Shown: positions 8,983-48,281 of the stretch, one piece after another | How the letters are laid out: every line of letters begins with the position of its first letter | Numbering within the stretch: the first letter of the stretch is position 1 | Origin: Sphagnum compactum | Taxonomy: Eukaryota | Assembly: GCA_965153455.1 (NCBI GenBank) | Contig: OZ234493.1 | Location: 4,154,001-4,218,000, forward strand | Direction: 5' to 3' | DNA length: 64,000 nt | Made by a program: the position numbers and the translations under genes | The notes under the pieces: model-generated | Seen by the model: the letters and a program-made list of their open reading frames with translations, nothing else | Database searches by the model: none | What the model was told of the DNA's origin: nothing

Positions 8983-11900
8983 CTATAGACGAGTAAATTG
9001 TCGTTTATCCCCTTGTGCTCGCTTCCCATATGGATTGCTTGCACTGAATCTGTGCCCAGACCCTTGCCCCTCTGGCCGGCTGCCATTGCCTGCAGAGCCC
9101 ACCTTTCTCCTGAACTTGGCAGCATTGCTATCTAGGTTCAAATTCACTTTCGGAGGACAGCTGAATCCAAATGAGGCTGCCACAGCCTGCACTCCACCCA
9201 ACCCAACATCTATATCAAATTTGGGAGACAATCACTTTCTGACACTGACTTTGAGAAACTACACTGTCTCTTTACATCATGAAAGCAATCCACTTTTTGC
9301 AAATTCACTCGCAATTAACACTTCAAAATCACTAGTGCAAAATGTTAGCATAACCTACATATTGTTCAAACTTTTACATGCACCCAACATCCAAAATGAT
9401 GACCTGGAGATCTAGGCGATGGACATTGAAGATGTCCTTCATGGCATGAGAATTGTAGGCCAGCAGATATGACCGATACGCATCACGAGCAGACTGATGC
9501 AAATAGTAGTTCTTCTCCACAAGCTTTTCCTATAAAGCCATAACATGTAGTAAGCACCTTAACATCCCATTCAGATTTAGACCAAGGTGATTCATGCTAT
9601 TTAGCTTTAACCATTAAGGATAGCTATGAACTAGGATTCTCTGTCATTTGATTGTCTTACATAAATGCCTCTCAAAGGACATTACCAATACAAATAAATA
9701 GTAAAATAATCATGGAAGAACAATCATGAATACAAGCCTTCTCCTGTTATAGCACTTGCAATTAGTTAAAAGCCCAGTGTAAATTTATTTTCATATTAGA
9801 GCAATGGGATCAAGGAAATGGCACAAACTAGTTGTGATTGGACATTTGCAATCTTGTTTGATGGGAACTCATATTCGTTGAGAGGAACTTTGGCACCCTG
9901 CACACATCAAAATACACCCTTTGTGTCAATATGTACTGAAACTAGTCCAAACCGGAGTTTTATATCTACTCAGGAAAGGAAGCCCCCACTGTCAACAGAT
10001 TCATTGCAATTTCAAGAACTCTGCCCTTCTCAAGCACTGAATCCAACTACGATGCATGATAACATGCAGCATCTACAAGGTCAGATTGTGATGAAGGTTC
10101 ATAGGAGAAGCTAGATACTGCTGTAGGATGAGGCATACCTTCAAGTAGCGAAGGAAGCCAAGCTCTTCAGGAATAAGGAAAAGAAGAGCCCTTCCTTGAG
10201 CTCCTTCTCCTCTTGCAGTACGACCCACTCTATGAATGTATTCCTGCAGTAATGCAACATAGAAGATTCTAGCAAGATGACAGGCTAGATGAAACTCCCA
10301 TAAACAAAACCAAAACAAGAAAGCACAAAAGAAACAAAGTTGAGGCTTGAGATTTTACCCTTGGATCATCAGGTGGGTCATACTGAATTATCCAATCCTG
10401 CAGGCAACACAAGCAAGAATGCATATAGTAGAAAAGTCTGAATCGCAGTACCTCACACAATACTGGACAAAACTCCATTCAACCCAACACCACACACTCC
10501 TGGGCTCACCTCATTAATTGAGTTCTATAATTTGCAGTTCCGAAAACACTATCCTACAGCAATGGTAGATACAGAATAGATAATGAAGTGTACAAAAACA
10601 AATATAACCTGCACAGAACAGAAAAAGTGTAGGAGGCCCACCACAGCAGGAATGTCCAGACCACGTGCTGCTACATCTGTGCAGAGAAGGATGCCTTTTT
10701 CAGCGTTGCAGAACTCAAAATAGGTTGAAGTTCGTTTTTGCTGCTTTTGTTTCCCATGGATGTCTAGGCAAGGGATGTCAATATAGTTCAGCAATTCACC
10801 ATGGAATTTAACAGAATTACATGATGAAAAGAACACCATGATCTGTGCACAGTCCACCACAAAAGTTGTGTTGTGTTATTAGCACATCTCAGACCACAGT
10901 ACCCAAACACAAAGGAGCAAACCAAGCCAAGTCAGCACAACTGACTCAAGCACAAAATAAACCCTGCAACCATTAACACCACTTGCATATCAAGAGCTCA
11001 AAATAGTTTGTGGTACATCCTACATGATGTTTTGACTCCTGGGTAGTGTCTGTACAAGCATGAGGCTATACCTTCTTCTTGAGATTTTTTTTCAAGAACG
11101 TGAAGAGGAGAAGAAACCGCTGCTCACTTGAGACTACACAGTAACCTTGTTCCAGACCCTCCACAGTTGCCTGCCTCCCCACTCACAATGACCTCCCCAG
11201 TCACTTCAAGAAAGCAAACACGGATGCTGTGGGGGCATCTGCTATCAAGCAGTGCACAACAGGTGAAAGTCCAGGTCCTTACAGAAGGTGGACATAGAAC
11301 TTGACTGCAGAGGAACATTCATGGTTAGGACATCAGCTACAGCAAAGGCGATAGGAGACCCTAGCTTTTTCAAGAATCCTGCTCTCCTGGGGCTTGTAGC
11401 TCAGCAGCCCACCTCAAGGGAGCACTACTGGAGTCTGAGGGGCAGTGACTACCAACAGTAACACATATGATGGTCACTATCATTACATCCCCAGAGATTC
11501 TCAATTCCTAATAGTGGGTTAACAGTGAATGTAAGCTACCAGCCTTTGAAATGAGTTTCTGTCCCAAGTTTAGAAGCAACAGGAAGAGACAACCATGATG
11601 CCAGGTAGCATACCAAACATAAGCAGACACAACCACAGACAAACACTAAGAACAGATGAGAAAAACCCCAACACATGGAAGAAGAAGAAGGCAAGAAGCT
11701 CAAACTAAAAACAATGAAAGAGAAATTAGTGGTGGGCCTTGATTCCTGTGGACTGCATGTAGGAATCCAACATTCATAAAGTCTATTCAAAGCACCGAGA
11801 GATAACCAACAAAACAGACTTACATTTTTCACATAAATAAAAAAAATGCTAGTGCTTCCAACTAAGCTGAACTTGAGCGGGTTGCATCTTCTGGGAGTGT

Positions 11901-13755
11901 GACAAGTACCTTGGTTCGACCGTCATCAACACCAATGTACAAGGGGGCCTTCTTAAATGACACACGTGCCAGATCCTCCACCTGCACCTCTCAATAGAGC
12001 AAAAATATTAGGACAGTTTGACTTTGATGTAATGCTAATAAATACCAATTTCTGGGTTCACTGCTCTCTATTTTCAATTGGTACAACGGATCACAAACGT
12101 GACAAACACACCTTTGTGGTCTGGGTGGCTGAGAAGAGAACAGTCTGACGTTCCTGCAATAGCACCACAAATGTATTAATTCCATTTTCATATGTTCTCA
12201 GACATGCTTTTCAATTACAGAGAACTAGCACTGACTAGAGTTGCAAAAAATGACCATGTTCAACAGCACCCTCCAGATTTAGGGAAGTGTGTCTCTATCC
12301 AAAAGCAGCAGATCAAGAACCTTAGGTAAGAGCCTGATAATTTGCTTCATCTCCTCCTCAAATCCTATCTCCAAGATACGATCGGCTTCATCAATGACCA
12401 GGCACTGCACAAAACCTCAGGGAAAATATATATACTAGGATGTGAATATCTCTTCCAAGAGAAAAATGCAGTGCAGAACCTTTTTTCTCTCCTCAGTTTT
12501 TTTCCTGGCTGGGCCAACAATGATCACTGGTGATCACAGATTTCATAGAATGTTATGCACCACCTGCCTTAAGTCTACACAGAGCTGTATAAGGCACACA
12601 CAACAATCAAAGAAATTTGCCTTGGAAAGATGATGTGAAGCTTTGAGGAGGACTTGAAGATGACCAACCTTCAGATTCTTGAAAAGAAAACCCTTCGTGT
12701 TTTGAAGGTGATCCAAGAGGCGCCCCGGAGTAGCTACTAGAAAATTCACTCCTTTGGCCAGTTTCTCAGCCTCTGTTCGCCTGTTGGCTCCCCCCATAAC
12801 AATGCCATGTGTTTGCTTATGGTACTTCAGAATATCTCTCGCAACACCATATATCTGCAACCACATCATCTTACAACATGTTAAATGGAGATCTGTGGAA
12901 TGAACAAGAGATTCAATGAAAGCACCAAAACCCACCATATGTCTCAAAAGCAGCAGCAGCAGATGGAAATAACTGGAAGATGACATATCATGAGTTTCAA
13001 GCAAGGAAGGAAGAAGCTCACCTGCATGGCAAGCTCTCGTGTGGGTGAAATGATAAGGACGCCAGTACCATTGCGAGGCATGAAGTGTGCATGGAAAAGC
13101 AGCTCTGCCGCTGGTACCACAAAAGCTAGGGTTTTACCAGACCCTGTTCTTGCAGCTCCCAACACATCACGTCCTGTCAACAGCTGAGGAATTGACCTTG
13201 CCTGGATCTGCAGAAACAAAAACAACTCCCATCATGCGCTCTGCAAATCAGGCCTAAGGAGGGGTGGGTGTCAATACAATCCCTCCCTCCCTAGCTAGGG
13301 TTTCTTTCTTTCACCTGACGGCTCTTTGCAAAAGCGAAACCCTAATCAGCAGCTCTAGCTGCCAAAAATTCTTCTTCCATTACCTCAGTCATGTGAGTGA
13401 ATCCAGTGTCGCGAATTGCATTCATCGTGGGCTCAGAAACAGGCAAAGTCTCGAAAGCCGTGTTGCTCATGATCCCTCCCACTTGTGCAGTCCCACCATC
13501 TAGCATCTCCATCTCAAACTTCATCTTCTTCCTCTTCTTGTTCTTCTTCTCTTCTCCAGCAGCAGCAGGAGACTCCTCTTCTCCTTGTTCTTCTTCCACC
13601 TCAGAGACCGGCACAGCCTCCACAACGTCCGTATTGTTCGTCACATCACTGACTTGGCCCGCGTCTCCATCCGAGATCTCAGCCTCGACCTTCATCTGCT
13701 TCCGCTTCTTGCCACCAGCAGCAACCATCTTCTTCTGCGACATTGTCGACTTCAT
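8983..13755 (-). CDS. HAS1: DEAD-box ATP-dependent RNA helicase, HAS1/DDX18 family (Arabidopsis RH27/RH51-like), ribosome biogenesis
   Basis: 13 exons, all with GT-AG introns: 13755-13384, 13207-13022, 12854-12669, 12404-12321, 12153-12112, 11981-11910, 11170-11072, 10842-10642, 10397-10359, 10243-10139, 9897-9829, 9529-9404, 9186-8983. Motifs: Q motif (GFTHMTEIQ), [46 protein letters not shown], and the Has1-type C-terminus ([24 protein letters not shown]). Alternative start at 13743. Confidence 0.95.
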
Positions 13756-14009
13756 CCTCCCTTCCTTCCTTCCTTCCTTCCTGTGTGCTTGCTTGCAACT
13801 AACCCAAATTGCTGAACAAAGGATCAGAAAACGAGCACATTCTCTGCCAGTTCACTTTGCACTTCAAAACAGCATTGCAAGCATCCTCGATTCTCGCACA
13901 AATCTCCCAACAATCTCGCGGAGCTCTGAAGGAAATCCGAGGCAAGCCGCGAAGCTCGTGAAGCCGAAGAGCTTCGGACAGGGCTTCCCTCTCTCCCTCC
14001 CTTCAGCGT

Positions 14010-28294: not shown

Positions 28295-31200
28295 ATGGAG
28301 GCGCCTTCTTCGTTGTTGCAGCGACATGGGTACACTCTTCTCATGCATTCGTCGCAGCAGCAGCAGCAGCAGCAGCAGCTCCACTCTCAGCCCCCGCCGC
28401 CGCCGCAGCAGCAGCAACTACAGTACCAGCAACAACAACAACAACAAGTGCAACCTGATAGTCACGGCTTTACCAGCAGTGGTGGTGCAGTAGCTGCTGT
28501 CAGCTTGAGTGGCCAAAAACGCGACAACTCTGGCGTACCTCTTCTTCCTCAACCTTCTCAAGGTATGTAAAACCCTCTCTGTGTTTTTTTAGGGTTTAGG
28601 GTTTAGGGTACTTTGCTGAAGGATGTTGTTGTTGAGAGAAAGAAAACATGGGTTGGTTTTCAAACTTGAACCCCTCCATGCAGTCTCTCTTTGTAACGTT
28701 TTAGTGCCTTATCTTGCAATGGAATCTGCTGGGAAGAAAAGTGGTGAAACTGTTTTAGGGTTTAGGGTTTGTCTGATGAGGATCTCTGGCACAATTTCCT
28801 TTCTTTCACTCTCGGATTTCCCCTTTTTTTTCATGCTTGCTCATTTGTGTCGCTGTTTTGAACATTGCCACATCTGAAACTGGTCATGGTCTCAGTTGTA
28901 TTCAGCTCGACCTAAACCTGTAAATTCGGATGTTTGCTATTGTTCAAAACTGCTGCTGAATTTTTCCTGCAATTTTTAGGATTAGGGTTGGTGTCTTCCC
29001 CTCTTCTTCTTTCTGATTTGCTCTGGTATGTTGCTAGACGGAAATTCTCTGCAAAACCCTATGAGGTCATCTCTCCATTGTTATTATTATTATAATGGAA
29101 GATTCTATAGTTTGCTGGCCACTTATATCAGTGAAAAGGCTGGTGGGAGTACAGTACATGATGTGGGGCATAATTTATGTATGTGTGGAGTGTGGCTGGA
29201 TGCTGATCAAATTTGTTTCAAATTTCTCTGCTTGTCTGATGTGAAATTTCACGACATGGACAAAGTTGGTTCTCACAACCTCATTGTTTACTTCAGACTC
29301 TGCAGATGGAGTGACATTTGTTAAACTCTTTGTTGGTTCTGTACCACGAACCATTTCTGAAGAAGAGGTACAGAACCCTTCCAATTGTTGCTATTCAGAT
29401 GAGCCAATTTATATTTTTAGAGAAGCATGTCAAACAAGGTGCAGCAGGGTCATTCATCATTGTATTCTGCTGCCCTGCTATGAACCTTTACAGAGTTCAA
29501 CTTGAAGAGGAGGAACACTGTGTTTGCAGTGCATTTGAATTACCATGGGACTGTTGGTACATGGTTAAACTTAAAGAAAAGTATTGTTTAGGGTTTAGGG
29601 TTTTCGCAAGACCTTCTGATGGTGTCATGTCAGAAACTTTTGCAGGTGTGGCCTATGTTTGCAGAGCATGGGAATGTTCTGGAAGTAGCAATCATCAAGG
29701 ACAAGCGCACTGGGACCCAACAAGGTATGTCTTTTGCCGTTCAAGTAATTCTGGATAGACTTGTATATTTTTGGATCTATTTTTTTGTTTCAAATTCTTT
29801 TTTCAGACATCTTGCTGAGTATGCAAAGATGAGCAGGCCTGGAAGAATGTAGGCATATGCTAAATATTAGTTCTTATTTACAGCTAGTCTGTAATTTTTC
29901 ACTTAGTGGGCAAACTAAGTGCTGACCAGGGTGTTGGTGGGGGATATGTTCGCTAGGACCAAGGCATGTATCATTAGGATGGATTAGACTTCAGTTTGGA
30001 CTGCAGTGTAGGCCAGTTTGTTTGTTTTAGACTTCAGATGAGAGAGCCCTAGTCTAGTAAAGATTCTCCAGGCTTTGCATATCAATAATACTCCATATAA
30101 ATGGCAACAATGCCCATGTTGAGTCCCAATCCCCTCAAATGTGTATGTGCAGTTGAAAACTATCATGTGTTTGGTTGGTGTTTGTTGAGTGGGTGTGGCT
30201 CATTTAAGTGTGAACCGGATAACCCCTTTTTTGCCTTTTATGCCTGAGTAATAGGATGTTTGAATCAAACTTGTTTGAATGTTGGCAAAAAGTTATTGTC
30301 TTGTGCAATAGCAAAGTCTCCTGGTGATTGTCATGTGATGTTGGCCATTATGATTGTGAATGGCATCAGACTTATTCTCATGACAACTCATGTAGTCATG
30401 TATGATGCAATCAATGTCCTTCATTCCAATTTAGGGGTGTGGCACTACTCCCCACAGTACATATGTTTAATTTAACACCTGAAAAGAGACACATGGTGAT
30501 TGCAGCTGCCTAGATTTATCCTTAGTTTTGATCTGGTGGTAGAAGTACATGGGAAAAAAGATCTGGAGACTGTTGCTGGGAAAAATGTTGTGGCCCTGGG
30601 CCCAAGATCCATGAAATGGTGCTGGGTCCTGTACTATTCACACCAACCTCTATTGAGTGAGTATTGCCAGTGTGTTGTGAGGCTTGAGTATGTCCAATCT
30701 CACACATAGTTCCTCCAATTTGGAATACTGATATCTTTGAATGGATACCCAAATGTTTGAGGCTCTCCACATTGCCATTATCCTGCATGTTTCTGCAATT
30801 TTCTACTCACATCAGTATTGGATGCAGACTCATTTGTCTGTGTGAGCTATGTGTGGGAATCTTGATTGGTTTATTCCAGAATCAGTCTACGGTTATGTTT
30901 GTATTGACTTGTCTCAGTGAATTAGCTAGATTTTGACCACTATCATCTGTATCGATTCTCATACAGCTTATGGTTGTAAGCTTCATTCCTGTGTTTGTGA
31001 TTTTGATTTTTTTGGTTGGTTTCTTTGTAGTGGATGTGCACCTTGAAGGAAATGTGGATGCCCATGTTTGATGCTATAATTTGTGAATTTTCTTGAGTTG
31101 GGAATTCTTGTCATTGTCACTACATAATGTTTGTCAGTCAGCCAATTAATGTGTGAGCTCCTGGAAAGCAATTTTGCAAAAACTGTTCCTTCATGTACTG

Positions 31201-34200
31201 GATCCTAAACCCTAAACCCTCATAATCTCACCAGATTGTCACAAACACCCAAGTTTGTGGGTCATCCAGTTCATATATCTGTTTTGGTAGTTACAGAGCT
31301 GCAAACATGATTGTCAGTCAATTTTCAGATTTTCAGCTGTGAAACAGATCTTTTAAGTAATGAAAAACTCAATGCAATTGACAGGCAATTGTTTCTGCTA
31401 TTTCAGTGTGCATTCAGAAGTGGGTCTTCATAATTTTTATGTTCCTATAGCTGGAGGTGGGAACTGCTTGCATGTCTTTGAGAATTAGGCTCTACTTCAT
31501 GATTCAAAAGTGTTCATTTTGCAGGTTGTTGTTTCATCAAGTACAGCACAGTTGAGGAGGCAGAGAGGGCCATAAGGGCTCTTAACAATCAACGCACTCT
31601 ACCAGGGGTATGTTGTCTTAGGTTTTAGGATTTAGAGTGATTTGGACAAAGCTGTTTGTCATTGGATATCTGTTAGTTCTTTGTGACCAGGTTCAACATC
31701 ATACTGCTACAACCTCATGTTTCAGAAATGTCCCTACAATCAATGATGAGCCTCCAGGTCCAGAAACATCAATGGCTATGGTACAACGTTAGACTTGAGC
31801 ATTGTGAGTTCAACTCATAGTGCTGCTTTGTACTTCTTCCCAGGGCACGGGTCCAGTACAAGTCCGTTATGCCGATGGAGAGCGTGACCGTCTTGGTAGT
31901 GGTCCTGCATTACCTTTCTGTAAGAAAAAGGTTTTGATTGTGACATCAATATTGCTATTTGTATAAACTTCCGCTTTCAATAGACATAAACCTGCATTGA
32001 ACATTGGCTGTAATAGCTTGTGTTGTGCAGAACTGTTTTACTATGTGGGAAGCTCAGGCTTAAGAGTCAAAGGTCTGCATGAGTAACTTGGTCAAGTAAG
32101 AAATTCTTTTTTTGCATTATGCGGTCATGTGGGTCTTGGATTTACATGGATCCTGTCAATTTTGACTTGTGGTAGGTGCTGTGGAGCATAAATTGTTTGT
32201 GGGTTCTCTCAACAAGCAGGCTTTAGAAAAAGAAATAGAAGAGGTAAAGCTCAAACCCACTATTGCAGGAGCATCAAGTGCTTGCTTGACCCTTTTCTCT
32301 GTAGCGACAGAGTTATTTGCTAGGTAATGCATTGGCATGCCTATTAGCCTTTCATTGGGTCCCATTTCCTGCCTTCCACTGGGTCCTAATTTGACTACAG
32401 AAGTGAGCCCTATCAATTTTCTGAAACCGAAAGCCAATAAAAACGAATGACTGTGACAGATATGTTCATGTGTGGTTGCAGATTTTTTCTCCATATGGAC
32501 GAGTGGATGATGTATATATCATGCGTGATGAGCAGAAGCAGAGTCGAGGTCTGTACTTGTGCCCATTTCTAGCTTTCAGAATCTTGATTGCAAAATTTCC
32601 AAATCAGTTGAAAATGGGTTTGCTTTATTCAAGATGATTTTGTTTGCATGATGGTTTTGTTCTAGTCTTCAAGCTGGGATTTGTCTCTGAAATAGTGTGT
32701 TGGAAAGAGATTCCTGGGGGGATTTGTGAAGGGGGTTCTATGCCTGCTTTGTTGTAGGTGGAGAGCAGAAGTTACTGTACTCAAAGTTCTGTGACCAATG
32801 TTACTGGCAAGGCAGAGCTAGATCCATCCATTTTGACTTTATCTGGAGATGATTGCAGGTTGTGCCTTTATCAAGTACCCACAAAGGGAGATGGCACAAG
32901 CAGCAATTAATGCACTGAATGGCAATTACACAATGCCTGTAAGTTTTAGACAATGTTCTGAAATGTTTTCTTTAGCCTGTGCTTTCCATGAGCTATTATT
33001 GAACTCTGATTTTTATATTAGAAATAAACATGAAGTGTCCAGGATGTGTAAGTAGGTCCTTTAGCAATGTGTCACTCTCTGTTGGTATTAGGCCAGTCCG
33101 AAGAATGTGCTAACTCTGGGAACCCCCTCTTATTCCTGTACTCAGGGTTGTGATCAGCCGTTGGCTGTACGATTTGCAGATCCCAAGAGACCCAAGGGGG
33201 TTGATGCCAGGTGTGTCCTAAATCGTATCTGTGTTCTCCTTTTCGGGTAATTGGGTAGTCAGGGATGGCATTGAATTTCTAGTTCCGTCTGGGTATGATT
33301 ATGAGTTTCTAGTTTCCATCTGGTGATGGAATGAAAGTTAAAGGGAGTGTGTGTGATTCATACTTGGATGGCAGAGTTGGTGGTCCTGGTGTTGGGGGCC
33401 CAGGCTTCAGTCCTGGACCGGGACAAGTGACAGGAGAACTGAGGTGTGTGGTCCAAAGTGAAACTGGCAGGGTATCTCCTCATTCTAGGTCACTAGCCTT
33501 GCAATCATAAAGCACACCGAGATATTCAATTCTACAGCTTTTCTGTGTTTTGGAATAGGACTATGCAGCAACCGCAGATGGGATACTTGGCTGCCCAAGG
33601 TCCACCAATGGGGTGGAGACCAATGAGTGGGCCAGGTGTTGGACTACCTCAACCTCAAGCAGGGCCATCCCCATATGGAGCACTTGTGGGACCGAGAGGA
33701 GGAGGCTCTGTTATGGGCGTGGTTACACAAACTGTACGTTCCCGAATCTTCAACAAGTCAGTGTGTGCATGCATCTTGTGAATTCAGATGGGTTTGTTTG
33801 TTCAACCAAGAGCCTTTTACAAGTCTGTTGTGACCATATTGTGCTTGACTGTGCAATTTGAACCAGGGATATTGTGAGGAAAGAATTCGTTCCCATTCAA
33901 GTTTGTTTTCTCATGTTGAGAGACAGAATCTAGGGTTCACACTTGATGGGTTCATGAGGTGTTGTAAGTAAAGCTTTTGATTTATGCAGGGTGGTGTGAT
34001 GGTAGGGCCTCCTACTGTTATGATGAATGGCCATCTCCTCCCCCAAAGTGTTCCAGTACAAATGGCTGCTCCAGGAATGCTGCTACCTCAGCAACAGGTA
34101 GGTGGCTGTGCTACTAGACAAATGTGCTGTACTTCTGTATGGTCTTCCTTCAGTCTGTGGGCTTTACCCTAGGTTTCGTGCTCATGGACCCACACCTATA

Positions 34201-37200
34201 GTTGTGTCTCTGCTTCCTGTATGTGTTGCAAATCTTCTGTGTTATGTTATTAGACCTCAGAGATTGTGTGCTAGTGTGGTGGTGGTAGCTATTGCTATGT
34301 TCATTCCTGAACACCTTTCATGGTCTGGAAACAAGTCAGGGATATTACCAGCTCCCTGAACAACAGCTGCAGCAACAACCGTATGCAGTCCAGCTACCTC
34401 AGCAGCAACAACTGCAACCGCAGCAGCAGCAACAGCAGACCTATGTTCAGATCCCCACTTCCCATCAGCAACAACCTCAGGCTTATGGCCAGATGCAGGT
34501 TTTTTTTCTTTCCTAATTTTGTGAATGGCTTTGAATTCTTGCTACCCAGTGTTTTTGCCCGAATGATCAGATGCTACATCCACCACTTGTTTTTGTTGTT
34601 ATTATTGGTGTCAAAGTCATGAAGAGTTGTGGTCTTCTGCTGTTGCCATCTCTTGTGAAATCATCAGGAGTTCTTGTGGAAACAGAGCATGAGAGGTCAC
34701 TTCTAATTTATTGGAGTTGAATATTCCAGTTCAAGAAATGTTTTTGATATCTATGTGATTGCTTGATGGGTTTTTTCAATTTTGTCAGGTCCCTTCATCA
34801 CATCCACAAGTGCAATCACAGCAGCAGCAGCAGCAGCAAGTGGTCATGCAATTTCAGCAGCAGCAGCAGCAACAGGCTTCTTTGCAGGCTGTGCCTCAAC
34901 AAATGGTGCACACTCAATCCTTCCAGCCTAGCCAGGCCCAATCTCAGCCCCAGCCAGTGCAGCAGGTTCTTAAAATCACTTTGCACTTTTACACTCTTCA
35001 TGAAAACAATTGCATAGTACTTGCTGTGTTTAGTGAGTGAGAGGAATCATTCTGTTCTTGAGAATTGTATTACCAGTCAGCAGAATTCTCAGCTGCTTAC
35101 TGTACCCATATCTGCCTTGTTTTGGGTGGTAAAAAGTGCTGAAGTTGAATGCCAGAAGAGAACCGTAAACCGTAAACCCATTACATGTCAGTCCTAGCAT
35201 CTAGTAGGAATTGTTCAAAAGCAGATGTGCAAGCTGATTGACGGGCCACAAAGGTCCTTAGATACTATGCTATGCTACCGATGACTTACATGAACGTCAG
35301 TGGTATTTGCAGATATATTATCAGATCCCTGTTGTCCAACCTGTGCAGCAGCAGCAGGTACTTTTTTTACCAGGTCTTTCTATGTCGATGTCTAAGACTG
35401 TTATTCAATATGCTGCCTGATCATATGTTGATTTCATCTCTATGAAACTGAATAAAATGTCAGTCCAATTTTGGCACTTGTATTCTCTTGTGCAGCCAAC
35501 TTGGGTACTTCCTGTCCAGCAGCCACAAACAGTTCTGGCTGCTGTGACTGCTCGTCCATCACCTGCCAAACCAGCAAACTGTGACTGGACTGAACATACT
35601 TCACCTGAGGGCTACAAGTACTATTACAATAATGCCACTGGGGAGAGTAAGGTAAGTACCACTTCATTATTTGGTTGTCATTTGTCTCCAGAAAGGAAGA
35701 AAGTGTTGGAAAAAATTTCACCACTGCATTCCCCATCCATCTTTTCATCTTCTTAACATCTTGAAGAGGATCACCAATCTTGATTTTTAGTTTTTTTTTT
35801 CATGATGTATGGCAGTGGGAGAAGCCAGAGGAGCTAATTGCTGCTGAGCAACAGGAAAGGCAAATCCCAATTGCTGCAGTCACTGTAAGTTGAGCCATCG
35901 CTTGCAGCAGGTCAAGATTGTGGCAAGAGTTTGTTATCTGTTGATGACGTGGTCAGTGAGTGACTTTTTGGTGCTCCGTGTGAGATATTCAGAGAACGGC
36001 ATTTGCACATTCCATTTTGTTGTAGTGGGTAGTTGTACCCATGTGAGTCTAAAAGAGACATGACTGAGCATTAGAGTGGGTAATCCCTGTATGTATCAAA
36101 AGCTAATGTATCAAAGTTGTTTTGTCAACTTCACAGCAACAATATTCTGGATCTGCTGTTGGGTCACAGCATCCAGTCCAGGTACTTACATTGCCTTCAC
36201 TTGTAACTTGAAGTTTTGTTGTAGTCTTTTTATCCTGCTACAGCATCTAACAATGCGTGCTGTGGTTCCTCTAGGTATTGAATTACAGTTGGCCACAATC
36301 CAGTAATGGGCTTGTTGAACAGCCTAGGCAACAGGTACAATTCAAGTTTTGGGTGTGTCAGAATTCTTGCTGTTTTGATTCATGGATGTACATTGTTCCC
36401 TAATTGTAATTTCCTGCCTCTTGAGACTACTTTGCATCACCAAATGCAATCGTTTTCCATGTGGCCAAACAAAGACTGTCTCGTGAGATTGGCTTGGTTG
36501 AACCCATTTGTCAAAAATGAGAGTCGGTGCTGGGGATCTATCACCAAAATTGGGTAAATAACTTCCAGCTTCTGAGCCCTGTTTGAAAATTACAACTAGC
36601 TGAGACAGGACTTCTGAAGACCTAAAAGACCGCTTTTCATGCTCATGGACTCCACTTTTCTCAATGTGGGGGGTCTGATGGAGCTCTATGACATTGAACA
36701 GCATATGTTGAATACCCTCCACCACATGCAATACTTGTTAGAGGAGCATTGCCTGATACAGCAGTGGAGGGCAGTCTGTCTGCCTTGCTCATGCCGAGTG
36801 TGGTAAATTGCAGGGACCCCCTGGTGCCAACTTGTTTGTGTTTCGAATTCCTGATGACTTCACAGATGAGAACTTGAAAGAAACTTTTGCCCCTTTTGGT
36901 AATCTTCTTCTTTGATCCTCTTGCTGTGAGTGAGGGGACACTGGTGACTGTGGTGTTAAAGAAGTGGTCAAAAAAAAACATCACCACTTTGACTGAGCCT
37001 GCACCATCACAAGTATCTTAAGGCAACCCCCTGAACATTTCTTGAGAAGTCAGGTCTCTCTCTCTCCAGGCAGGCAGTGACTGACTCCCCTTCGCCGCCC
37101 ACCTGATGAGATATGATTGAGCCATATCCACATCTGCCCCCACAGAACGTCTCTGATAAAGAGCAACATGGGTGTAAACGTTTGAGTAACTTAGGTCCAA

Positions 37201-37713
37201 GTCTTCTTGTGCTGCAGGTAATGTCATCAATGCAAGAGTGGGTGTTGAAAGGGAAAGTGGCCGGAACAGGGGCTTTGGGTAAGTTGTTCGATTTTAACTA
37301 TCAACAATTTGACATATGTAACTTGGGTCTAGGGTCATGTTCCATTGTTGCTTGCTGTTTCTGACACTAATTCTTTGCTGGTTTCAAGGTTTGTGAGCTA
37401 TGACAGTGCAGCATCTGCAGAATCTGCCATACAAGGTCTTAATAATGTTCCTGTAGGAGGTCGGAGGCTCAAGGTACAACATTAACCAGCTCACTCTTTG
37501 TCCCTTTCACTTGTGTTCCTAGAAAACGGGAATATAAGTATTCTGTGGAATTGTAAGTTGGGATGCATGGTCTTACTCAAGAAAATTAAAAGGACTGAGC
37601 TAAAGGCACTGACTGTTATTGGATGTTGTGTCTGGAATTTGTGGCAGGTTGAGAGGAAACGAGGGGAAGAAAATGGAATTCAACAGGCTTATCAACAGCA
37701 GCAGGCTTACTGA
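28295..37713 (+). CDS. FCA: FCA-like RNA-binding protein: RRM1-RRM2, Q-rich region, WW domain and an additional CELF/Bruno-type RRM3
   Basis: 23 exons, GT-AG introns, frame-consistent: 28295-28562, 29297-29367, 29646-29724, 31525-31607, 31844-31895, 32176-32243, 32482-32548, 32859-32938, 33146-33210, 33375-33443, 33559-33733, 33990-34097, 34340-34498, 34789-34965, 35313-35357, 35496-35651, 35816-35884, 36137-36181, 36275-36334, 36814-36898, 37218-37278, 37389-37473, 37648-37713. FCA hallmarks: VKLFVGSVPRT, IKDKRTGTQQGCCFIKY, KLFVGSLNKQA, GCDQPLAVRFADPKRPK, and WW domain [28 protein letters not shown]. RRM3: GPPGANLFV...RGFGFVSYD...GGRRLKVE. The small Q-rich exons are less certain. Confidence 0.92.
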
Positions 37714-40700
37714 GCTCTGTAGCCTCTCTCTAGCATAGCTGTAGTCTAGAATATTGTTCCTTCAACTGAATTGGTTGGCTGGCCACTATCTGAGAAAGTT
37801 TCATGTGCCTTGACAGAACATTGAATTGGTTTTTGGTTTTGGATTGCAAACTTGTAGTTGGCTAATGGCTTCACTTAATTGTGGTTGAGGGCATCAGGTG
37901 ACATTATAGAGGAAAATGGCAAAACTTAGTTATTTGTTAAGCTCTCAGAGATTAAAATTCAAAGAAATGTTGAGACACTGATCAAATTTTTTCAAAGTCA
38001 ACTTTAGCAAAGTTGTCATGCTCTGTTCTATGTGCTTTTTTGGACTCCTTCCCACACTACTCACTGATTGATAAACTCGGGTATTTTGTCTACATTCCAA
38101 ACACTGGGTTGCCATAGGAGTCTGATACTAGGACTCTTTGCTCTGCAGAGGTTGAGCACAAGACCTGTGCAGGTGTCTTCTCCATTGTGGGTTCTCTAGA
38201 TGTGATGCTATTCCATACACCAACCAAACGTGTGTGAATAGTTGGTGATGAATAGTTGGCAATGACTGTGTTCTTAACTGATAGGAACTCTAATACAACC
38301 TTTTCTATTTATCGTGCAGGTGGAGGAGCTGGGCAAGAGATGGCAATTTGACTCAACTCCTGACGTCATTGCCGACCCGATTTATCATTGAAGAAATTGT
38401 ATCAAAGAACATCAAACTCCACAAGCACCACACCCATGGCTCCGGTATCCGCCATGCACTTGTTTCATCAGCCTTCATAGTAAGTTATCCATCATATGCA
38501 CACATAGTAACTGTTAATGTCACTCACAGATTGGGTCAAGTTTTTGAGTCAAAATTTTTATCTTGAAATCCTACACCAATGTGTAGTGTCTTCTTCCCTT
38601 CCCTATGGGTAAAACGAATATAATACTTATAGATTTTAGAATAACTTTCTTGACAAAGAAAGAGATGTTAAAAATGCCAGTTTTTTCTTTTGCAAACTTC
38701 AGTTGAAATGTTGTCTTGTGGAAAATTTTAATGTTGTGTATAATGTTGAGGATATTAACACTTGTCATAAATGTCATACAACAGATTATGTGTGAAATGG
38801 CAAAGGGGCTTCACAGATTTGAGCCACAAATTTCATCCCCATTCGACTTGTTGCAGTTGATTTATGTAATTAATAGAGAACCTCTGGTCCAGTCTTGAGA
38901 TTAGTGCTTTGAATCTCTAAAACTTTCATTTTCGATCATTTTCACAAAGAAGTTAGAGCCAATCCAGTTTAAGACCACATCTTGAGATGGCTCTAATTCA
39001 ATTTTGAATTGAAACAATGTACCTGGTTAGGTTCCAATGACGATTCCAACCAAAAAATAGGAACTTGACCTATGACCTGGACCTAATATTAAGGGTTGTC
39101 ATTTGTATTTAGGTTGAACTTTGTTAACTATTGTTTTTTAGTCGAGGCCCATCTGCAATTTGTAGTTCTTATACTTTCACCTTAATAGGTGTTTCATCTA
39201 TAAGTATATGTCTAGATTTATTGTGATAGATTTATCTATAGATTTATAGTTATACCTTATCTTCCAACATTATTATAGTTTCATTCATAAATTTTGTAAT
39301 TGAATATTGGCCAAATGTCCTATGGTTGGACGTACATTAACTAACTTTATGGTTACATCTATACCAACAAATTATATAATTTTTGTAGTCGTATTTATTA
39401 TGTATAATGGAATTGTTTCCTCAGATAGACTATAAATTCTAATTGAAAAAAAATTCAAGCTTCATAACAAACATCATATAGATTCTTTTTCATTTGTAAT
39501 CTTGTTTTGGAAATCATATCACCATAACACTTCAAGTTGCTTTCCATTAGTACCTATATTTTTTGTACTAGTTATGGTTTTGATTGTGCCATTTCCCTAG
39601 ATAATAACCATGTTATTATCATAGTCATGGGTCACTTTTGCATCTTTTAACGAATGTCAACCTAATAACATAGAATAACTAGAGTTTATCACATTGTTCT
39701 ATAACAAAATGAACATAGTTATATAAAAAATTGTGTTAACATTTTCATCATTCTTTACACAAGTTTGCTTTTACTTTTCACTTATTTCTTAACTGATTTT
39801 TATTTTTTTTTCCAAAATTGAATATAAATTTGAGATCTGGATATGAAAACCAATTGTTAGCACATTTGTGAATACCACCTTGTAAGATAAGTGACTTGGT
39901 TAAATTATTTTTTTAAATTGAAACCCTAATCGGTTTTCATGAATATATTTTTAAAGAACCAAAAGTTTGTCATCTCATTTGTTGGGAAGAACCGGCAATT
40001 CTCATAAAAAAAGAAAGAATTGGCCAACATTGGCATTTTCTTCAAAACTAAAACTTTCAAAAAGGTTTTCTCTTCATTAAATTTGGTTGGTTTTGAATCA
40101 TAAATCCTCGTATTAGCATATGAAATTCATAAGGTATTGGTCAACGGTCAACAATACCTTACGACAATTGTAAGGTATTTTTTTTCAATTCTTTATTATG
40201 ATTTTTCTTTTCATATAAAAGAAAATATTTTTACAATTTCAAATTTATTTTAAAAAGGTCTTACACACTAAAATTCAAAAATAAAACAAGACAAGACAAA
40301 GACAAGTCAATACAAAACCAAAAACAATGACAAACTCAAATGATGACAATAATTCAATTATTAAAAAAAACTCAAAAAATATGACAATGAAAAATCAACA
40401 CAAGAAAAAAAATCACGGTAGTTCAATTTGTGAATATTGAAGTATGCAAATTGTAAATCACAAGTCCATCAAGCTAAAATTAAGTCTCAATTAATCAAAG
40501 CCTAAGTCCACCATAAAAAAAATGTTGAAGTTCATATGGAAAGAAGTAATGTCTTTACAATGCAATGTAGCAACCAATTGCCTCCACAAAATCCACAATT
40601 GTCGTCAACTTTGGTGTTGAAGCAACATTAAAAGTGAAATCCCATAGCAAGCATGAACAAAAACTAACTATGTTTCAACATAAGTACTGATAGATGCACA

Positions 40701-47718: not shown

Positions 47719-48281
47719 ATGTTGGGAAAGCCGAAACCCGTGGAGAATATCTCCAATGACTTGGAAGTGGACGAGCTCGCCAATTTCGCTGTTACCCAGC
47801 ATAACAGCCAAACGGTTAGTCATTTTGTGTCTTTGAGAAATTAGTGTTTCTCATGCATCTCGGAGGAGATGTTTAGTAGCAAGGGTTCTTGACTCGGGAG
47901 AGAGTTAGGGTTTGCTGATTCAACTAATACTTATCTTTGTGAGAAAAACTCTACTTGAAAAAAAACGTCTGGCCAGTTTCTGTGTACTAGTAGTAAGAAC
48001 ATTTTCTGAGTACAAGACTGAGATGGTTTTTTTTTCCCCTTTTTTTTTGGTTTGGTGTGATGGATTTTTGGTTGGGTTTTGTTTTACAGAATAGCCTGCA
48101 GAAATTGACGTTCTCGAAGGTGGTATCAGCAAAGAAACAGGTGGTGCAGGGAACTATGTATCACTTCACCATAGAGGTGCAGGAGGCCGGGCAGCCGAAG
48201 CTGTATGATGCTAAGGTGTGGCTGAAACCATGGGAGAACTTCAAGAAGCTGGAAGAGTTCAAGCCCTCTGCTACAGCATAA
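47719..48281 (+). CDS. Phytocystatin (cysteine protease inhibitor), single domain, no signal peptide
   Basis: Exons 47719-47814 and 48090-48281 with a GT-AG intron. It has an N-terminal G, LANFAV (LARFAV motif), QVVQG (QxVxG) and KPW. An in-frame TAA at 47701 upstream of the ATG argues against an unspliced N-terminal extension. Confidence 0.95.

Follow-up and report, generated by a model that had tools for sequence, protein, structure and literature searches.

The window analysed here is a 64,000-nucleotide stretch of Sphagnum compactum contig OZ234493.1, and its region 28295–37713 is occupied by a single plus-strand gene; all features described below lie on this strand. The gene model has 23 coding exons, with GT-AG borders at 22 of 22 introns and a spliced frame free of internal stops. 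Together with RNA and Pfam evidence it describes an FCA orthologue with the order RRM1-RRM2-Q/P-rich-WW-RRM3, and placement of the exon 15 acceptor by RNA at 35313, not 35325, gives a protein of 730 aa. Exon 1 (28295–28562) carries the AUG start and an N-terminal polyQ segment. Exons 2–5 (29297–31895) encode RRM1 (aa 98–180) and include the longest intron of the gene, intron 3 (1800 nt; 29725–31524), with a putative proximal poly(A) site near 30110–30160. RRM2 (aa 189–269), delimited like RRM1 by the gene model and local profiles, is encoded by exons 6–9 (32176–33210). A low-complexity linker follows in exons 10 to 16 (part; 33375–35579), G/P-rich at first and then Q-rich with up to 24 Q per 50 aa. 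The WW domain placed after this Q-rich linker, as in FCA, scores above the PF00397 cut-off and is also found by profiles (aa 550–582; 35580–35845); it is split by intron 16 and retains both tryptophans.

The C-terminal exons form a third RRM. Exon 19 (36275–36334) has a phase-0 end, which coincides with the switch of seed-plant FCA to a short tail, and is followed by intron 19 (36335–36813). Exon 20 (36814–36898), whose 85 nt are not a multiple of three, opens RRM3 with RNP2. The 61 nt of exon 21 (37218–37278) run from β-2 to RNP1 in the spliced frame; their phase-0 frame is likewise open, and a profile of seed-plant FCA C-termini matches it. Exon 22 (37389–37473) supplies the remainder of RNP1, helix 2 and β-4; in the frame that would result from a skip of exon 20 it runs into a stop after two codons. 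Exon 23 (37648–37713) completes RRM3 and adds a short tail and the stop codon. Local profiles on the 730-aa model place RRM3 at aa 633–718, so that the RRM quoted in the preliminary description is indeed encoded by these last four in-phase exons.

RNA support comes mainly from X22, four pooled stranded poly(A) runs of which ~12% was read, with 422 reads aligned, 359 of them at ≥99% identity. The exon 19–20 joint is crossed by 14 reads from 11 starts and recurs in contigs of three metatranscriptomes (X1–X3), a short-read confirmation of the junction. The exon 21–22 and 22–23 joints have 11 and 13 reads, respectively, and with these three joints covered, transcription does not end before 36814, an outcome that would have counted against the third RRM. 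Altogether 14 of the 22 model introns were found among the joints listed (15 of 27); introns 4, 5, 9, 10, 13, 17, 18 and 20, and hence the exon 20–21 joint, were not among these, and the intron 17 joint is present in X1. The short reads cover joints singly rather than as one full-length transcript. The JGI-called single open reading frame of a Sphagnum paralogue (P0010) runs continuously from WW through the whole of RRM3, which points to one spliced transcript carrying both domains. Poly(A) reads also lie inside introns 19 (depths 16, 9 and 8) and 20 (depth 6) in X22. Retention of intron 19 is predicted to give a 654-aa protein that lacks RRM3, and a form that retains intron 20 is annotated in a Sphagnum paralogue (P0011). 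Because of these intronic reads and the P0011 annotation, inclusion of RRM3 may be regulated.

Intron 3 also carries poly(A) reads near its 5′ end. In X22, poly(A) read depth is 19–27 at 29757–29796, 12 at 29950, 5 at 30105 and 0 from 30161; it thus ends ~400 nt into the intron, and no tail or 3′-end pile-up was seen in these reads. The spliced joint of intron 3 has 5 reads, versus 18 for intron 1 and 16 for intron 2. The intron contains one AATAAT (30084) and one TATAAA (30096), its sole hexamers of this kind, both also present in a second Sphagnum copy (L002). Contigs from X1–X3, which are not poly(A) runs, span most or all of it. Between the two Sphagnum copies, no extra conservation was detected near the putative site, with 3–7 differences per 200 nt throughout intron 3. 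The depth pattern resembles FCA-β autoregulation and suggests a putative proximal poly(A) site.

A search with the WW exon returned two Sphagnum proteins, P0001 (96% identity to the model) and P0004 (98%). Pfam finds three RRM_1 stretches and one WW in each of these two near-identical database proteins, which, together with the 23-exon model, bears out the domain order first proposed. The protein also has the make-up of a CELF/Bruno protein, namely a pair of RRMs at the N-terminus and one at the C-terminus, homologous to CUG-BP1 RRM1–3, with PDB matches to 2dhs (E 7e-39) and 2cpz (E 1e-23). Both RNP motifs are kept in RRM3. In an alignment with CUG-BP1 RRM3, the RNA contacts F404, F444, F446, S448, K473, K477 and R478 are conserved, and four are changed in the moss protein (Y406 to F, F433 to G, Q475 to E, E396 to Q). 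With Gly at F433, Glu at Q475 and the other contacts mostly kept, the moss RRM3 probably binds RNA with a preference other than UG repeats. FCA is reported to bind RNA via its RRMs, to form nuclear condensates, to recruit FY via its WW domain and to promote use of the poly(A) site in its own intron 3 (PMC545797, PMC7457121, bioRxiv 2024.04.06.588283). By homology, RRM1 and RRM2 of the Sphagnum protein would bind nascent RNA, the Q-rich linker would aid condensation, and WW would recruit FY/WDR33 and thereby favour proximal polyadenylation, including that in its own intron 3 (PMC545797, PMC7457121). RRM3 would add a second, CELF-like RNA-binding site of altered specificity.

Arabidopsis FCA (At4g16280) and SSF (At2g47310) share with the Sphagnum gene the FCA-type RRM1 and RRM2, the Q-rich linker, the WW domain and a long intron 3, in Sphagnum with a putative proximal polyadenylation site, but end in a short W-M-W-K-N-K tail where Sphagnum has a complete RRM3. 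Animal CELF1–6/Bruno and plant BRN1/2 (AtCUG-BP1/2; At4g03110, At1g03457) have homologous RRM1, RRM2 and RRM3 but no WW. Among 325 proteins scanned, 38 have an RRM after WW. Seventeen are of streptophyte type, from two Sphagnum paralogues, Ceratodon, Physcomitrium, Riccia, Calypogeia and Chara, and 21 are of non-plant type, drawn from EukProt, MMETSP, JGI, Logan and 50% clusters. The RRM2-WW linker of the protist-type proteins is much shorter than that of Sphagnum FCA, and most of these proteins are presumably alveolate, given the published Plasmodium domain order. No four-domain protein identifiable by name as chlorophyte or red-algal was found in the sampled sets. The 50%-cluster search was dominated by multi-RRM proteins and was used for architecture counts alone. 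The ESM Atlas widened no taxon range, since its matches were streptophyte FCA or general RRM clusters, scoring <0.9 for P0199 and 0.90–0.91 for P0076. A metagenome scan returned at least four loci: a cDNA of conifer type, two that overlap and belong to a Sphagnum copy of 97% identity, and one unrelated.

The survey of architectures called for at the outset thus locates the four-domain form in mosses, liverworts, Chara and non-plant-type proteins, and the shorter form in seed plants. RRM2-WW with no further RRM was found in 127 of 411 proteins scanned, including all gymnosperm and angiosperm records with WW, a partial lycophyte protein (P0050) and one Physcomitrium protein (P0327). No seed-plant-named protein in either scan (325, then 411) has an RRM after WW. 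P0050, the sole lycophyte protein in a set that includes no fern, hornwort or non-Chara green-algal FCA, stops at the exon-19 boundary. The preliminary description had placed the loss of RRM3 on the way to angiosperm FCA; the loss itself is upheld, but its timing is not, because the Araucaria, Cryptomeria and Taxus FCA proteins already lack RRM3, and the loss is therefore older than the angiosperms. Nor is the architecture special to the Sphagnum gene, being found also in other mosses, liverworts and Chara and described for Plasmodium.

Trees of the individual domains, which had been proposed as a check, were congruent between RRM3 and the RRM1/2 pair. From both, near-duplicate Sphagnum isoforms were omitted, as were most copies from angiosperms, fish, insects and diatoms. 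The RRM3 tree, with 49 rows and 92 columns (few for a tree), also leaves out four of the 21 non-plant WW proteins (P0235, P0242, P0276 and P0323). In it, all 24 WW-bearing rows form one clade (97/98, starred), which includes the divergent WW-bearing proteins P0199 and P0246 and lies away from the BRN-type, animal and diatom CELFs. Within it, the seven plant FCA rows group at 100/98. In the RRM1/2 tree (32 rows, quick method), the Sphagnum protein falls within the plant FCA clade, including Arabidopsis P0058 (SH-aLRT 94), and seed plants are nested inside the four-domain plant set. Plant FCA and the protist WW proteins are joined there at SH-aLRT 93, unstarred and with P0199 outside. RRM1/2 identity to seed-plant proteins is 73–81% in most of the matches listed. 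Both trees separate the Sphagnum protein from the plant BRN1/2 subfamily, as does its WW domain, and in both the animal CELF and plant BRN proteins fall in clades apart from it.

The preliminary description had called the gene an FCA/CELF hybrid. Taken literally, this would mean that an FCA of non-seed plants with two RRMs and WW recently acquired the RRM3 of a BRN1/2 protein by fusion or exon shuffling. RRM3 does open with the CELF-type GP(P/E)GANLF, present also in the Chara BRN protein P0110, and its best single-RRM PDB matches are CELF1/2 RRM3. However, an AU test rejects a single clade of plant FCA RRM3 and BRN RRM3 (p-AU 0.0011), the domain clusters with protist WW proteins, and a relic of an RRM3 exon survives in seed plants (see below). 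A borrowed BRN RRM3 is largely refuted by these three observations, and we regard such a fusion as scarcely credible; the label “hybrid” is dropped. Based on the RRM3 and RRM1/2 trees and the AU test, the gene is, on phylogenetic grounds, the Sphagnum FCA orthologue and part of a WW-bearing branch of the CELF family rather than a fusion.

A different objection is that the four-domain form arose twice, in streptophytes and in protists, by independent insertion of WW, or passed between them by gene transfer, with the grouping in the trees an artefact or a result of that transfer. The alignments are short, the RRM1/2 support is unstarred, and the samples include no four-domain protein named as chlorophyte or red-algal, all of which would suit such a history. 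Yet the RRM3 and RRM1/2 sets each independently unite the streptophyte and protist groups, and the divergent P0199 and P0246 fall in the same RRM3 clade. The motifs GRNRGFGF and K[KR]GEE are moreover common to the RRM3 of plant and protist WW proteins and missing from the WW-less CELFs of the tree. We consider two origins or a transfer improbable, and favour a single WW-bearing CELF branch.

The seed-plant proteins retain a trace of the missing domain. A short C-terminal motif is present in 108 of 125 RRM2-WW proteins, with the seed-plant FCA tail consensus GLQAAQEWMWKNKPAGT, and exon 21 translated from its first base reads VMSSMQEWVLKGKVAGT. Joining the phase-0 end of exon 19 to exon 21, with the 85-nt exon 20 left out, gives this shifted frame, which stops two codons into exon 22. 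We built a profile from 93 distinct tails, leaving out the 17 of 125 RRM2-WW proteins that lack the motif (mostly alternative ends). Among 127,894 six-frame positions of the window, this profile scores best at 37218, with 16.7 bits versus 3.1 for the next, and none of 100 shuffled windows scores as high. An ungapped comparison of exon 21 with the conifer-type cDNA L001, which shows 72% identity to the Araucaria protein, finds 33 of 51 bases in agreement, a score reached by 0 of 2000 shuffles. In the reverse test, an RRM3 profile of 41 sequences that excludes plant FCA was compared at 77 offsets with tails read back one base off-frame; 68 of 79 distinct tails score best at the register of RRM3 β-2, against 8 of 200 shuffled tails. 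The W-M motif at the end of the intron-19 read-through was considered as a source of the tail and rejected, as it lies outside the top eight profile matches.

Could the match nevertheless be due to chance, with seed plants dropping RRM3 through an unrelated terminal exon from intron 19? The match spans only ~17 residues, and intron 19 retention does occur in the Sphagnum gene. However, the profile hit is the highest of all positions and falls at the exact start of the exon and in the exact phase, and the three controls (0 of 100, 0 of 2000, and 8 of 200 against 68 of 79) speak strongly for a common origin, which leaves coincidence a very unlikely explanation. Common origin through exon 21 is thus our preferred reading, and its direction is fixed as from RRM3 to tail, not the other way, because RRM3 is common to CELFs across eukaryotes. 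Exon 21 is the one exon behind this relic: exons 20, 22 and 23 could not be detected in the 3′ portion of L001 (304, 79 and 196 of 500 shuffles as high), where an RRM3 HMM gave no significant match either. Twelve seed-plant records continue with Ser past the final Gly of the motif, possibly the result of a 15-nt shortening and of reading on into an intron that corresponds in position to moss intron 21. In Physcomitrium P0327, the shifted-frame end directly follows the exon-19 equivalent, and 4 of its 19 positions misfit the RRM frame; the record may represent either a parallel loss of RRM3 or a skip isoform. No exon 19–21 skip joint was found among the moss RNA joints listed (15 of 27). What is seen is the match to exon 21, and skipping of exon 20 is the route we infer; RRM3 was most likely lost through shifted reading of exon 21, which seed plants kept as their tail.

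The four-domain form as the ancestral state, and flowering-plant FCA as derived from it by loss of RRM3, are supported by the distribution, the congruent RRM1/2 and RRM3 trees, and the frameshifted relic of an RRM3 exon in the seed-plant tail. The ancestry envisaged in the preliminary description is upheld on all three counts. Two RRMs are the derived state of FCA, and the Sphagnum protein, with three RRM_1 stretches, does not have exactly two.

A question of timing and selection remains alongside this history, with which it is compatible: exon 21 might be dual-coding in mosses today. An exon-20-skipped, short-tail isoform would then be made and selected beside the RRM3 isoform, and seed plants would have fixed an old splice choice. 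When the RRM-frame protein was fixed and synonymous codons were redrawn, 17 of 20,000 recodings scored as high on the tail profile, only 24% left the shifted frame open, and 50 of 20,000 reached the 11 of 19 residues by which the P0327 tail matches. Four-fold sites between the window and L001 are saturated in RRM1/2 and WW (19 of 64 match), and 5 of 8 match in exon 21. The shifted frame is open also in L002, which adds little at 97% identity. Most of the signal, however, disappears when ancestral third bases are allowed to persist at 26%, 40% or 50% (755, 2851 and 5678 of 20,000), and the skip joint is absent from the 15 of 27 RNA joints listed. These figures are at most suggestive of present-day selection on the shifted frame in moss, and we hold dual coding to be possible but the weaker expectation.

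Considered jointly, these results make it very probable that the gene is an FCA orthologue of ancestral, WW-bearing CELF form, that RRM3 was lost via exon 20, and that the exon-21 peptide was kept as a tail. The ancestor would have been a CELF-family protein with WW between RRM2 and RRM3. In the line to seed plants, exon 20, the first of RRM3, would have been skipped or deleted, and exon 19 then spliced to exon 21 in phase 0. Translation of exon 21 would have run in the shifted frame to a stop early in exon 22, yielding the peptide that selection would have retained as the conserved seed-plant FCA tail. More tentatively, and with less than even confidence, FCA may be no plant invention but belong, as its plant representative, to an ancient WW-CELF lineage that includes apicomplexan Bruno/CELF and ties RNA binding to 3′-end processing. 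Exon 21 would then have been dual-coding in land plants, with skipping of exon 20 deciding whether RRM3 or the short tail is made. The short-tail form would have become fixed in seed plants and, independently, in one Physcomitrium paralogue, an out-of-frame RRM strand thus becoming a conserved new peptide.

Parts of this picture have precedents. Seed-plant FCA is described as two RRMs plus WW (PMC545797, PMC1939987, bioRxiv 2024.04.06.588283), and FCA was noted as a CUG-BP homologue in 2004 (PMC545797). It has also been characterized as confined to land plants and, beyond its domains, as dissimilar to other families (PMC1939987), and Physcomitrella FCA-type genes already appear in an FCA tree (PMC7673134). 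Two Plasmodium CELF/Bruno proteins, PF3D7_1409800 and PF3D7_1359400, are listed as “Two RRM + WW + RRM” (PMC4630921 Table 3), the same domain order as in Sphagnum FCA when compared by description alone, but that section of PMC4630921 draws no link to FCA. Three-RRM moss FCA proteins are already in public databases, and the supplementary alignments of PMC7673134 or PMC1939987 could already show the moss RRM3. In the open-access literature, outside which most subscription journals lie, no paper was found that describes a third RRM in moss FCA, connects FCA with Plasmodium-type proteins or traces the FCA tail to a frameshift. On its own the architecture is a modest advance; what surprises is the overprinted tail together with the deep ancestry.

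Work on autoregulated polyadenylation and on nuclear condensates uses FCA as a model, and the present result places the ancestry of this protein among the CELF proteins. The role of RRM3, the reason why seed plants dropped it and the role of the new tail can now be tested, as can the question of whether Plasmodium-type WW-CELF proteins choose poly(A) sites as FCA does. The conserved C-terminal peptide of FCA would be explained as an overprinted, frameshifted RRM exon, and the family would thus offer an unusually clear record of the loss of a domain and the birth of a new motif.

Within the RRM3 region, intron 20 (window 36899-37217) is retained in some RNA, with a depth of 6 in the four pooled stranded poly(A) runs (X22) and with contigs in the non-poly(A) metatranscriptome sets X1-X3. 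The annotation of the Sphagnum paralogue includes the same retention event (P0011, with 12 cluster members), which truncates RRM3 past helix 1. Further downstream, a candidate exon with a strong acceptor lies at window 38320-38479 and may serve as an alternative last exon or belong to the 3′ UTR; spliced to exon 22, it would yield a predicted protein of 732 aa with an altered end. Poly(A) depth in X22 is 3-4 in the bins of this candidate exon, and none of the RNA joints listed is a splice joint into it.

At the opposite end of the gene, the conifer-type FCA cDNA L001 carries an in-frame CTG in good context at the site matching the moss ATG, and the residues EAPSS directly follow in both (L001:372-389 and window 28295-28312). 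CTG is the start codon of Arabidopsis FCA (bioRxiv 2024.04.06.588283), so the AUG kept by the moss may represent the ancestor of the non-AUG FCA start.

Introns 1-3 contain telomere-like TTTAGGG/CCCTAAA repeats (window 28590-28610, 28755-28770, 29590-29602 and 31205-31220), to which unrelated contigs were drawn when RNA was mapped onto the window. Elsewhere, exons at 10073-13851 (minus strand) resemble a DEAD-box RNA helicase, and an exon at 47997-48281 (plus strand) has the look of a plant cystatin; both family names are based on sequence motifs.

A further FCA gene with all four domains (P0012/P0017) occurs in Sphagnum, with ~77% identity to the window gene. Among CELF-like proteins, P0077, P0191, P0224 and P0265 have RRM3 duplicated in tandem and no WW domain. 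The only lycophyte record, P0050 from Diphasiastrum complanatum, stops two residues past the exon-19 equivalent and has neither RRM3 nor the seed-plant tail; its gene model may be incomplete. This lycophyte is the key taxon for timing the loss of RRM3.
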